Of a DNA stretch of 4,733 nt, positions 922 through 4,733 are shown piece by piece. The translations under genes and the position numbers were made by a program. Under the pieces are notes generated by a model, which did not search any database, had not been told where the DNA came from, and saw only the letters and a program-made list of their open reading frames with translations. The stretch lies in the IMG/VR virus record IMGVR_UViG_2548876695_000014; one strand, given 5' to 3'. The DNA comes from a virus (Duplodnaviria; Heunggongvirae; Uroviricota; Caudoviricetes). The first letter of the stretch is position 1, and each line of letters begins with the position of its first letter.

Positions 922-942
922 ATCGGGTGGTGAGACGTACAG

Positions 943-952
943 GGTTAGGAAC
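943..952 (-). repeat. Inverted copy of the same motif (GTTCCTAACC read on the minus strand)
   Basis: Plus 943-952 is GGTTAGGAAC, the reverse complement of GTTCCTAACC; differs from the direct copies at one position (T to C). Confidence 0.55.
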
Positions 953-1030
953 TACCGGGAAACCAACCGGCGAGCTTTTCAGCTCCCCCATACGCCCCAC
1001 CATAATTCAGATGTGCGCGTGCATACGACA

Positions 1031-1054
1031 ATAAAAAACACGCTCGCGGCGTGT
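1031..1054 (-). terminator. tR'-like intrinsic terminator downstream of the Q-like gene
   Basis: On the minus-strand RNA: stem ACACGC / GCGUGU (plus 1038-1043 and 1049-1054), 5-nt loop, then a U tract (plus A-run 1033-1038). About 80 nt downstream of the predicted start site of the 1117-1146 promoter. Confidence 0.5.
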
Positions 1055-1076
1055 GTCTGTCGCGGTCTCTATCCGG

Positions 1077-1087
1077 GGTTCCTAATC
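1077..1087 (+). repeat. GGTTCCTAATC motif, copy 2
   Basis: Exact 11-mer, flanked by CCGGG and CCCG; lies inside the short leader between the late-type promoter and its terminator. Confidence 0.6.
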
Positions 1088-1116
1088 CCGACGCCAGATT
1101 TTGCTGGCGCGTGAGG

Positions 1117-1146
1117 AATATAGCCCCGGATAACAGATTGAGTCAA
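1117..1146 (-). promoter_or_regulatory. Strong sigma70-type promoter directly after the Q-like stop codon (pR'-like late promoter candidate)
   Basis: On the minus strand: -35 TTGACT (plus 1141-1146, overlapping the TGA stop), 18-nt spacer, -10 TATATT (plus 1117-1122); predicted start near plus 1110-1112. The first 20 nt of the transcript can form a CGCCAG/CUGGCG hairpin (plus 1092-1109). Confidence 0.5.
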
Positions 1147-2642: not shown

Positions 2643-2816
2643 TCATTCCCGAATCACCTTGAAACCGAGCCTTTCAAGATATTCAATGAATGCCTCGATA
2701 GATAAAATTACATGATTATCAGGGATTAACGTTGCGTAGATAACTTCCCCATTCTCAACGCGCACAGCATAGAGGCCATTTTCACTAAAAATTTCACGCA
2801 ATTCTTCGATTTTCAT
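2643..2816 (-). CDS. Small hypothetical protein, 57 aa (below the ORF-track length cutoff)
   Basis: ATG 2816..2814 to TGA 2645..2643, hand-translated: MKIEELREIFSENGLYAVRVENGEVIYATLIPDNHVILSIEAFIEYLERLGFKVIRE. GGAAGGA Shine-Dalgarno 8 nt upstream. First gene after the 2898-2925 promoter, same strand as its neighbours. No family recognised. Confidence 0.5.
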   Translation of the reverse strand: MKIEELREIFSENGLYAVRVENGEVIYATLIPDNHVILSIEAFIEYLERLGFKVIRE

Positions 2817-2897
2817 CAACAGAATCCTTCCAGATAAATAGCACTCCCCTGCTCGGGGTCCATCCCTCTTCTCCCTGCGCGCTACTTAAGTGCATCG

Positions 2898-2925
2898 ATT
2901 CTAGTCAGGCATACCCGCTTATCAA
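2898..2925 (-). promoter_or_regulatory. sigma70-type promoter for the nin-like module
   Basis: On the minus strand: -35 TTGATA (plus 2920-2925), 16-nt spacer, -10 TAGAAT (plus 2898-2903). Predicted start near 2891, giving a leader of about 75 nt with a small CCCC/GGGG hairpin (plus 2846-2858) before the 57-aa ORF. Confidence 0.45.
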
Positions 2926-2978: not shown

Positions 2979-3004
2979 AAAAAACCCGCCGAAGCGGGTT
3001 TTTT
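2979..3004. terminator. Bidirectional intrinsic terminator ending the AT-rich operon
   Basis: GC stem CCCGC / GCGGG (2985-2989 and 2994-2998) with loop CGAA, flanked by a 6-A run (2979-2984) and a 6-T run (2999-3004), so it is followed by a U tract on either strand. It lies 6 nt past the stop of the 130-aa gene. Confidence 0.7.
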
Positions 3005-3009
3005 GTATA

Positions 3010-3402
3010 TTACATACTCTCAATGTCATTTTTTAGTGAGTGCTTGTGTAACTCCATGGAGTAATCAACATCACGAAGAGTTTTTTCAATCTGCTTGCTT
3101 CTCAGGGTGGCAAGCGCATTATCAATTGACACTTTTTCTTCATCTGAAGCATCAGCTCTCATTTTCGTAAGAGTCTTACGAGCCCTTGCCACATCCACCT
3201 TGAAACGTACGTCCTCTATGCTAGGTACGTTAACAAACGTAAGAAGTAGCAAAAAGAAGTGAGCAATAACAACAGCAACCCCAGGGAGAAATGCGTTGAT
3301 ATCAGCAGGTAACCCAATATATGCGCTAGCCTTGACCAATAGGTAATTTGCCACCGGTGTGCACCACGCTTGGCTTGCAACATACTTAGATTGTTGAATC
3401 AT
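3010..3402 (-). CDS. Small membrane protein, 130 aa: hydrophobic N-terminal segment(s), charged helical C-terminal half
   Basis: ATG 3402..3400 overlaps the upstream stop (ATGA); GAGG 6 nt upstream. Strongly hydrophobic stretch LPGVAVVIAHFFLLLLTFVNV, then a Lys/Arg/Glu/Asp-rich tail. AT-rich codons. No family recognised. Confidence 0.65.
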   Translation of the reverse strand: MIQQSKYVASQAWCTPVANYLLVKASAYIGLPADINAFLPGVAVVIAHFFLLLLTFVNVPSIEDVRFKVDVARARKTLTKMRADASDEEKVSIDNALATLRSKQIEKTLRDVDYSMELHKHSLKNDIESM

Positions 3403-3638
3403 GAAGTGCCTCGCGTTAAATCACGCTGAACCTCACTCAACGTGGACGCGAGCTCACGTGCATCCTTTGCATCCAACTGAACTTCGCAATAATGCCTAAC
3501 TCCACATCGATCTATATAAGTAAATTTGAGTGTCTTACTTGGTTTAAGCCAAACCAAAAAATGATATACAGCAAAACGAGCCAACATAAAGGCGGCAACA
3601 AAAACCGTAATCATCAACATGACACTTAAATAAGGCAT
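3399..3638 (-). CDS. Small membrane protein, 79 aa: single N-terminal transmembrane helix
   Basis: ATG 3638..3636, only 8 nt after the stop of the upstream gene. Hydrophobic residues 3-31 (YLSVMLMITVFVAAFMLARFAVYHFLVWL) followed by a polar C-terminus. No family recognised. Confidence 0.65.
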   Translation of the reverse strand: MPYLSVMLMITVFVAAFMLARFAVYHFLVWLKPSKTLKFTYIDRCGVRHYCEVQLDAKDARELASTLSEVQRDLTRGTS

Positions 3639-3646
3639 ATTATTAC

Positions 3647-4516
3647 CTATACGATTCGACGTTCAGCTGCGGCGCGATGCCGTACAACCTGCGTGATAAT
3701 GTATGCTGGATTCCCCAATACACCATTAGTTTCTTTGACTCTTTTTGTCACATTCACTACAAAAAGATCATCTTTACTGAATGACGCTTCGTTTAAATTT
3801 ACTCGCTCAAGAAAACCAGCATCCGCCATCTTAACCTTTACATCCTCGCCGTCTGGCAATACCATCCTCCAATCTGTATCGGAAGTAAAGCTCAGCTTAG
3901 AAAACTTGACGTTTAAGGTCAATGAGTCTTCATGTGTATGTTGTACAACCGTATTATTCACTTTTTTAAAAGAAACAGATTGCTCTTGCGAAATAGAGAC
4001 AATCTCCTCCCCACTTGAGTTTTTTACTCTAAACGACGAGTTTTTTTCAGTTTGCAGAGGAGTGTGTACCAATTTACTCATTTCATTGCGGATCGTAGAG
4101 TTTGTAACGAGCTTTTGTACGTCATTTGAACACTCAAATCGCTCATTATCAACAACAAAAGTCGCTCGGTTATTGGCTTCATCTATAACAACCTCATGTG
4201 GCTTTCGCCCTCGCAACCATTCTACAACCCCAACCAAACTCCCAGCACTTGCGCCGGTGGCAACAGAAAGCCCCAAGAGTTGCAAAGTAGATAAACTACC
4301 CAAAACAGAGACAAGAACAGTAAAAGATCCTTCCTGAATTGCCTTAATACTAACCCTAGTTGTTGCAGTCTCACCGTGGATAATTTTCTCTGCATTATCA
4401 ATCAAATTACTTAATGAAGACAGAGCATCACCAAGCATTTTAGCATCGATCTCATTATTCGCATATGCATCCCCAGCATATGCAATCTCAAGCTCTGTTA
4501 CCTGTTGGTCGGTCAT
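3647..4516 (-). CDS. Hypothetical protein, about 289 aa, with an internal hydrophobic hairpin carrying a G-x3-G-x3-G motif; first gene of the AT-rich operon
   Basis: Long minus-strand ORF, stop TAG 3649..3647. Two in-frame ATGs: 4534 has no Shine-Dalgarno, 4516 has GGTGGAG 9 nt upstream, so I prefer 4516. Hydrophobic stretch encoded near 4220-4327 includes TGASAGSLVG. No Walker or other enzymatic motif seen. No family recognised. Confidence 0.7.
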   Translation of the reverse strand: MTDQQVTELEIAYAGDAYANNEIDAKMLGDALSSLSNLIDNAEKIIHGETATTRVSIKAIQEGSFTVLVSVLGSLSTLQLLGLSVATGASAGSLVGVVEWLRGRKPHEVVIDEANNRATFVVDNERFECSNDVQKLVTNSTIRNEMSKLVHTPLQTEKNSSFRVKNSSGEEIVSISQEQSVSFKKVNNTVVQHTHEDSLTLNVKFSKLSFTSDTDWRMVLPDGEDVKVKMADAGFLERVNLNEASFSKDDLFVVNVTKRVKETNGVLGNPAYIITQVVRHRAAAERRIV

Positions 4517-4609
4517 GAAGTTCAACTCCACCATAAAAAATATGCAAAATAATTAACAGTATTTTCACTTTATGGCGGGTGCGTTGAGGATGCCTGACAC
4601 ATCAGAGGT

Positions 4610-4628
4610 GGCGGGGGTTTACCCCGCC
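4610..4628. other. GC-rich hairpin between the upstream gene end and the AT-rich operon
   Basis: GGCGGGG / CCCCGCC stem (4610-4616 and 4622-4628) with loop GTTTA. Not followed by a clean U tract on either strand, so not called a terminator. Confidence 0.4.
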
Positions 4629-4635
4629 TGGTCTC

Positions 4636-4733
4636 TTACTCCTCAGGTTCGTAGGCTACGAAGACAGCGACCTCCGTCTGGCCGGTTCGGATTCGTACCT
4701 CGCAGAGGTCTTTCCTCGTTACCAGTGCCGTCA
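4636..4733 (-). CDS. 3' end of a gene entering from the right edge (C-terminal 31 codons only); product unknown
   Basis: Minus-strand frame open to the window edge, ending TAA 4638..4636; hand translation ...TALVTRKDLCEVRIRTGQTEVAVFVAYEPEE. Composition is more protein-like than the other open frames here. Too short for the ORF track. Confidence 0.3.
   Translation of the reverse strand, partial: TALVTRKDLCEVRIRTGQTEVAVFVAYEPEE

Follow-up and report, generated by a model that had tools for sequence, protein, structure and literature searches.

A three-gene cargo cassette in a Rac-like Escherichia coli prophage carries a homologue of MichelleMyBell gp29 and is a probable anti-phage module

We analyzed a 4,733-nucleotide stretch of viral DNA (IMG/VR record IMGVR_UViG_2548876695_000014; this whole stretch is called the window below) that carries three adjoining genes, named here A, B and C, on a 1,573-bp insert in a Rac-like lambdoid prophage of E. 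coli. The insert is probably a prophage-borne cassette of the abortive-infection type directed against other phages, and would represent a three-component Gram-negative variant of the gp29-gp30 family of the mycobacterial prophage MichelleMyBell. This reading is based on the full-length homology between the product of gene A and MichelleMyBell gp29 and on the match of A to the PADLOC family PDC-S42, and it makes defence the best reading of the three genes, as a first-pass annotation of the window, made from the letters alone, had proposed. The same annotation had called the genes undescribed, which has to be revised since A falls within the curated family NF053583, which includes an experimentally studied member (gp29) to which annotation of defence genes gives a named-system label, MMB_gp29_gp30__gp29. 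The cassette is therefore not wholly undescribed, and a defence module in a prophage slot would not surprise a specialist; the value lies in the unification of three labels, in a tractable E. coli version of the family and in two new partner proteins.

Results

The product of gene A is homologous to MichelleMyBell gp29 over its full length

The longest open reading frame (ORF) at gene A runs from 4534 to 3647 and encodes 295 aa. We placed the true start at the ATG at 4516, which yields a protein of 289 aa, because a Shine-Dalgarno sequence (GGTGGAG) lies 9 nt upstream of it, because all homologues share the N-terminus MT.QQ that results, and because RefSeq uses the same start. A search of Pfam with A at E values up to 0.1 returned no family. 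Three other resources matched it strongly and over its full length: NCBIfam NF053583 (208.6 bits where the cutoff is 60, covering profile positions 2-291 of 292), PADLOC PDC-S42 (PDLC05015; E = 1.2e-46, residues 13-291 of the 295-aa ORF, profile positions 4-294 of 302) and phrog_3243 (E = 1.3e-67). In these resources the family is a single gene of unassigned function, whereas A in the window and its close relatives is always accompanied by B and C. PDC-S42 is one of 145 untested candidates, chosen because its members lie within loci of BREX, DISARM or type I restriction-modification systems (10.1101/2024.01.29.577857).

The same families contain gp29 of MichelleMyBell (KF986246), a protein of 310 aa that matches NF053583 at 181.4 bits (cutoff 60) and PDC-S42 at E = 1.6e-16. 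A profile of the A family aligned with gp29 over 271 columns (hhalign, 98.85%, E = 4e-17), and pairwise BLASTP aligned the two proteins end to end with 23% identity (E = 1e-6). In the alignment, the residues conserved throughout the family, namely a W, a D..F, a DD pair and a C-terminal HR, coincide. In the record of a Vibrio phage, moreover, a homologue of A is annotated as MMB_gp29_gp30__gp29. Three labels that had stood apart, MichelleMyBell gp29-gp30, PDC-S42 and the NCBI 'putative phage structural protein', are thereby joined into one family. Our literature search found nothing under the names PDC-S42 or LAPAL motif or under two RefSeq protein accessions.

A first AlphaFold model of A, made from 24 sequences, reached a predicted local distance difference test score (pLDDT) of 76, and a model from a deeper alignment of 62 sequences reached a pLDDT of 88.3 and a predicted template modelling score of 0.72 with unchanged secondary structure. 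In the model, the N-terminal part consists of a strand, a long helix and further strands followed by a Gly/Ala-rich segment; a middle alpha/beta domain comes next, and the C-terminal unit has five strands in OB-fold order, a helix lying between the third and the fourth. The Gly/Ala-rich stretch (residues 65-98) is moderately hydrophobic, with a Kyte-Doolittle maximum of 1.85, and had been read in the first-pass annotation as an internal hydrophobic membrane hairpin. The pLDDT-88 model predicts a strand and two short helices there, making the hairpin doubtful. Fold searches against the PDB gave no solved structure resembling A, and a search of PDB chains with the sequence profile of the family gave a single chance match (E = 0.03).

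The family of A is large, since its profile, run against 1.84 billion representative proteins, recovered 2,851 clusters at 50% identity (E <= 1e-3); nearly all of the best 150 of these clusters contain proteins of 280-320 aa. Distant members of the LAPAL family read D(L/V)R(D/E)LAPALLA at a site where A of the window has DAKMLGDALSSL in the aligned columns, with MLGDAL in the place of LAPAL; the literal motif is thus missing from the N-terminal helix of A. The typical LAPAL members that we examined, from alpha- and beta-proteobacteria, have the literal motif and are standalone genes. In two of three standalone members (L019 and L020; alignment A2, columns ~95-150) the central segment just before a conserved KWLRGRK motif is longer and more hydrophobic (Kyte-Doolittle ~2.0) than in A of the window. 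As judged from these sequences, these two members may anchor themselves in the membrane, whereas the members of trios may rely on B and C.

The membrane partners of A resemble gp30 in layout

In MichelleMyBell, gene 30 overlaps the end of gene 29 and encodes a protein of 67 aa with two predicted transmembrane helices, so that a small membrane protein is encoded directly 3' of the large one, in parallel to A followed by B. The gp29-gp30 pair and the cassette of the window also have in common that each is carried in a variable part of a temperate phage genome. The first-pass annotation had recognized in the three genes the logic of a soluble component combined with membrane components, and gp29 with gp30 matches this logic. 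The number and shape of the membrane proteins differ: MichelleMyBell has one partner, a bare two-helix hairpin without a tail, whereas the cassette has two, B with one helix and a soluble tail, and C with one or two helices and a charged tail. The membrane partner of A therefore appears, from sequence and gene layout, to be an analogue of gp30 whose homology to it is unsupported. Just upstream of gene 29, MichelleMyBell gene 28 (L024, 5729-6109) encodes 126 aa that, like C, combine one transmembrane helix with a long charged tail; this gene may simply be part of the lysis cassette.

The phenotype of the MichelleMyBell system has been described in several papers. The prophage lowers the plating of phage Tweety by 4-5 logs, and Tweety has a tunable counter-defence in its gp54 (PMC8549241). 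A second paper regards the system as typical of abortive infection, with adsorption and DNA injection going ahead but no phage being produced (PMC6426606). A third describes gp29 as toxic, gp30 as a putative membrane protein and the mechanism as unexplained (PMC11856565).

Genes B and C are real and selected together with A

The genes are arranged as the first-pass annotation had described: three tightly packed genes on the minus strand, with a gap of 8 nt between A and B and an ATGA overlap of the start of C with the stop of B. B has an N-terminal transmembrane helix at about residues 4-31 (hydrophobic from 1 to 31), a KP motif and a soluble tail of ~45 aa, and this tail would be cytoplasmic by the positive-inside rule because lysines follow just after the helix. 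C has a strong transmembrane helix at about residues 38-58 (hydrophobic from 29 to 63), a possible weaker one before it at about 9-30, and a charged tail of ~70 aa that is probably helical. Hydropathy thus agrees with the earlier description of two small proteins with N-terminal transmembrane helices and tails. Pfam returned nothing for B and only a sub-threshold match for C (DUF1659, E = 0.034), and neither protein was matched by the PADLOC and NCBIfam libraries; each falls in a PHROG family (Table 1).

Gene B is absent from the RefSeq annotation of the genome that carries the window. It is nevertheless a real gene, because it is intact 3' of A in all loci examined (spacing -11 to +12 nt, 8 nt in most) and because comparison with an E. 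coli variant of the cassette and with a Raoultella copy gave ratios of nonsynonymous to synonymous substitution rates (dN/dS) of 0.215 and 0.148, respectively. C is kept 3' of B in all complete loci, and the dN/dS values against the E. coli variant are 0.037 for C and 0.085 for A. With order, spacing and sizes kept and purifying selection acting on them, A, B and C are not chance ORFs.

The close relatives of A, which come from Enterobacterales and Orbaceae, group into only 26 clusters at 90% identity, and every one that we inspected is followed on its 3' side by a B-like and then a C-like gene. Among distinct viral contigs of IMG/VR (A identity 35-100%), 17 of 18 keep A, B and C, the last being truncated at the contig end, and order, spacing and sizes are kept in 10 genomic loci as well. 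The elements that carry the trio are diverse. In Raoultella lambdoid prophages it lies between the replication genes and ninB; in the E. coli variant it is again 3' of hokD and precedes a different nin region; in Enterobacter hormaechei it shares an integrative island with genes for a serine recombinase and a VapE-like primase; in an Orbaceae Mu-like prophage it directly precedes the holin and transglycosylase genes; and in a Serratia P2-like prophage it is at the gpD end. A+B+C is thus a conserved unit under selection, which travels among unrelated mobile elements and occupies cargo slots. Trios of the same shape also accompany more distant homologues of A (~25-27% identity) in a PM2-like temperate Vibrio phage and on large Pseudomonas megaplasmids, with a protein of ~285-310 aa followed by one of ~83 aa with an N-terminal helix and one of 140-160 aa that has helices as well as a charged tail. 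When the small partners from Vibrio and Pseudomonas were compared with B and C by hhalign (probabilities of 9%, 9%, 0.4% and 31%), homology was unsupported, the architecture alone being common. In Gammaproteobacteria, therefore, the gp29 family travels with two small membrane proteins that had not been linked to it before.

The cassette sits in a variable slot flanked by hokD and the hokD terminator

The window is 100% identical to a stretch of the prophage in the chromosomes of E. coli 2000-3039 and 99E2750, and 97.6% identical to a prophage of O157:H7 strain F3113; the host of the prophage is Shiga-toxigenic E. coli. All window genes are on the minus strand and follow one another, in the direction of transcription, as hokD, A, B, C, a hairpin terminator, a 58-aa ORF, DUF1367, YbcO, DUF1133/Q-like and ORF6N antirepressor-like genes. 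The upstream neighbour of the cassette had been taken for a replication-side gene; RefSeq shows instead hokD, a type I toxin gene. Pairwise alignment with a prophage whose slot is empty (L002) and with one that carries other cargo (L003) placed the insert junctions at 3001/3002 and 4574/4575. In the empty-slot sister prophage both flanks align at 94-95% identity and A, B and C are absent as a clean block of 1,573 bp. In the third prophage, from E. coli UTME-3, the same two junctions enclose a gene for a Doc-family (death-on-curing) toxin with a 59-aa ORF upstream (L003, 8107-8952), and an IS3 element lies just beyond. The Doc module is found in the slot between hokD and the terminator in many prophages of Shiga-toxigenic E. 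coli. The slot behaves as a hotspot of toxin or defence cargo.

The hairpin AAAAAACCCGCUUCGGCGGGUUUUUU at the end of the operon folds at -15.7 kcal/mol (z = -4.55), and none of 200 shuffled sequences was equally stable, in agreement with the strong terminator noted earlier. A simple terminator scanner did not call it, probably because its U-run can pair with an upstream A-run. The hairpin is kept in the window and in the empty-slot and Doc-slot versions, and since it stands directly 3' of hokD in the empty slot, it is a resident of the slot and not a part of the insert.

The insert is rare, being present in 4 of 5,426 complete E. coli genomes, and in one of these four copies, at 84% identity, A is broken into two ORFs. 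The exact A protein occurs on 524 contigs of a wider collection, and a pattern scan of the genome collection, which used narrow search patterns, gave 3 loci. Hand counts of base composition in the first-pass annotation held up on recount, with 31.7, 40.0, 33.3 and 38.3% G+C in four 60-nt blocks of the operon against 45.0 and 56.7% in two such blocks outside. Over whole genes the cassette has 41.5% G+C against 49.4% in the nin-like genes, and 36-40% against 51-54% at third codon positions, so the difference in composition is real but moderate. The identical junctions that are empty or hold Doc in relatives, together with the rarity of the insert, bear out the proposal that these genes are horizontally acquired cargo in a variable slot. 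The comparison documents, in Rac-like prophages of Shiga-toxigenic E. coli, an exactly bounded cargo slot, with hokD on one side and the terminator on the other, that is filled with different toxin or defence modules by strain.

Signals for expression of the cassette

Besides the three genes, the insert contains a short AT-rich leader upstream of A, in which a promoter-like pair, GTGAAA and CATATT separated by 18 nt, has 8 of 12 matches. The region from 4517 to 4640 contains a hairpin without a U-run; no terminator is thus present between hokD and A, and read-through into the cassette is possible. Several non-E. coli copies in different elements (L004, L007, L027-L029, L034) share a partly conserved element about 40-75 nt upstream of A, in which GAATAAATACCC precedes a -35-like (A/G)TGA(C/T)T and a -10-like TATC(T)T; the window copy keeps only a degenerate form of it. 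From this element, the cassette seems to bring its own promoter or operator; a promoter function of the leader in the window is putative.

Discussion

A model of the cassette and its alternatives

In the mechanism that we propose, A, the presumed sensor or toxic component, would be a cytoplasmic protein of alpha+beta domains and a C-terminal beta-barrel. In an uninfected lysogen, low-level transcription that either reads through from hokD or starts at a weak promoter within the cassette would supply the three proteins, and the cytoplasmic tails of B and C would restrain A at the inner membrane. A trigger made by an infecting phage would free or activate the complex, and the growth or the membrane integrity of the infected cell would then be shut down before progeny are made. 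The effector could be any one of the partners. A bolder version, in which A+B+C is a distinct Gram-negative three-component membrane machine for abortive infection, with B and C as a new membrane effector or anchor and the gp29-like A as a phage sensor whose domain combination has no solved relative, is conceivable, and we are inclined to doubt it. If true, it would offer the first mechanism for a family of ~2,850 clusters that goes by three unrelated names (gp29, PDC-S42 and 'LAPAL') and spans Proteobacteria and Actinobacteria. The gp29-type family is found on prophages, plasmids and islands. A representative in E. coli would be much more tractable than that of mycobacteria.

Several observations weigh against a defence role of the cassette. 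The role is likely and is carried over from the mycobacterial homologue, all Gram-negative members being known from their genes alone. The identity of A and gp29 is only ~19-23% and the host of A is Gram-negative, so that function could have drifted. When profiles of B and C were compared with gp30 by hhalign, no similarity was detected (probabilities of 0.2% and 0.4%), and gp28, despite its C-like shape, is not similar to C either (0.1%); only one of the two defining components of the MichelleMyBell system is therefore demonstrably shared. The prophage defence by gp29-gp30 was reportedly described by Dedrick et al. 2017, and the statements on its phenotype given above come by way of later papers that cite that work. 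The NCBI name of NF053583, 'LAPAL motif-containing putative phage structural protein', points elsewhere, and distant LAPAL-type members lack membrane partners in Polynucleobacter, Mesorhizobium and a metagenomic genome. The copy in Polynucleobacter sp. 86C-FISCH (L020, 7001-7915) stands alone between trbL and virB8 in a type IV secretion/conjugation operon, an unusual location for a defence gene, and might have a different role there, e.g. entry exclusion. With many distant members standalone and one of them in such an operon, the family may lack a single role. On the side of expression, a consensus promoter scan upstream of A at a threshold of 9 of 12 matches gave no site, and expression of the cassette in the lysogen is presumed.

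Of the other explanations, we consider it unlikely that the cassette excludes superinfecting phages at the envelope, B and C acting together with A to block the injection of an incoming genome at the inner membrane without killing or arrest of the cell. By hydropathy, B and C are small proteins of the inner membrane, the OB-barrel-like topology modeled for the C-terminal domain of A could bind nucleic acid, and prophage morons in slots of this kind are often injection blockers, as are HK97 gp15, P22 SieA and T4 Imm; such a block fits poorly, however, with the abortive phenotype and the toxicity that have been reported. It is also rather improbable that the genes are an addiction or stabilization module, a toxin with a membrane antidote that aids the persistence of the element without a direct role against phages. 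The slot adjoins hokD and is occupied by a Doc toxin module in sister prophages, copies exist on Pseudomonas megaplasmids, and gp29 is reported to be toxic without its partner (PMC11856565). The module, however, is found mostly in prophages, where there is little for post-segregational killing to act on, and the MichelleMyBell prophage gives strong phage defence (PMC8549241). Since toxin-antitoxin and abortive-infection roles often coincide, addiction is in part the same explanation as the abortive-infection cassette that we prefer.

The name of NF053583 also suggests that A could be a virion or assembly protein, and the position of the trio before the holin and transglycosylase genes in the Orbaceae prophage, like that of MichelleMyBell genes 29-30 after the lysis cassette, could suggest that B and C are regulators of lysis resembling holins, antiholins or spanins. 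Such a structural or lysis role is very improbable. Matches to Rz-like spanins in PHROG are weak and not significant (E = 0.15 for A and 0.16 for C, the best values for the three proteins against holin and spanin families), no homology of the three to conserved structural, lysis or replication proteins was found when it was looked for, and the holin, lysozyme and lysis genes of the prophage itself lie ~6 kb from the cassette. The cassette is missing from near-identical prophages and is therefore dispensable; its position relative to lysis and structural genes varies in every element; the genes are also found on megaplasmids and on an island without virion genes; and one distant A homologue is inside a type IV secretion operon. 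The occurrence on plasmids, islands and in dispensable slots, together with the published defence role of gp29, indicates that the name of NF053583 is probably misleading, and we retain the anti-phage cassette as the best explanation.

The first-pass annotation had further compared the layout with that of RexA/RexB of lambda. Membrane depolarisation has been proposed for RexA/RexB and for the Rex-like pairs Sbash gp30/gp31 and CarolAnn gp43/gp44, and DUF4747 is reported in RexA and Sbash gp30 (PMC6426596). The likeness of the cassette to all three systems would be one of working only: a cytoplasmic protein of ~280-300 aa and a small membrane protein expressed from a prophage and leading to abortive infection. 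As A has no Pfam match at all, it has none to DUF4747; RexB has four transmembrane helices, whereas B has one and C one or two; and the PDB fold searches gave no Rex protein among the matches listed. The resemblance in layout thus stands, a family relation does not, and the cassette is not a member of the RexAB family.

Other features of the window

The coordinates of the cassette, its surroundings and further features are collected in Table 1. Opposite to A, a plus-strand ORF of 214 aa (3693..4337) is a mechanical ORF without support and was disregarded.

Table 1 Features of the window, with coordinates in the direction of the strand where these run downward
Feature	Coordinates	Strand	Basis
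hokD, 3' part, type I toxin gene, clipped by the window end	4636..4733	-	RefSeq, in the identical region
Cargo insert, 1,573 bp: short AT-rich leader with A, B and C	3002..4574	-	Alignments to empty and Doc-carrying slots
AT-rich insert leader with Shine-Dalgarno GGTGGAG (4532-4526) and weak promoter-like pair	4517..4574	-	Read from sequence
Gene A, 289 aa, gp29 homologue, member of NF053583/PDC-S42/phrog_3243	4516..3647	-	ORF and profile matches
Gene B, 79 aa	3638..3399	-	ORF, hydropathy, phrog_27630 (E = 5.8e-13)
Gene C, 130 aa	3402..3010	-	ORF, hydropathy, phrog_26468 (E = 2.1e-9)
Intrinsic terminator hairpin AAAAAACCCGCUUCGGCGGGUUUUUU	3004-2979	-	Fold of -15.7 kcal/mol
Promoter-like site upstream of the 58-aa ORF	2925..2898		10 of 12 matches
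58-aa ORF, TTG start	2643-2819	-	phrog_340 (E = 1.4e-18)
isrK/C4 RNA region	923-1123	-	
isrK Hfq-binding sRNA	1033-1110	-	Rfam, 69.4 bits
C4 antisense RNA	923-1007	-	67 bits
a1/b1 target of C4	1070-1123	-	

The 58-aa ORF that follows the terminator is represented in RefSeq only by a pseudogene fragment of 78 nt. It lies outside the insert, in the conserved flank common to the empty-slot prophages, and a promoter-like site precedes it. In the interval that separates the Q-like DUF1133 gene from the gene for the ORF6N antirepressor-like protein, the window encodes an isrK Hfq-binding small RNA and a C4 antisense RNA with its a1/b1 target, and this region looks like a c4-ant immunity module of the P1/P7 type inside a lambdoid prophage.

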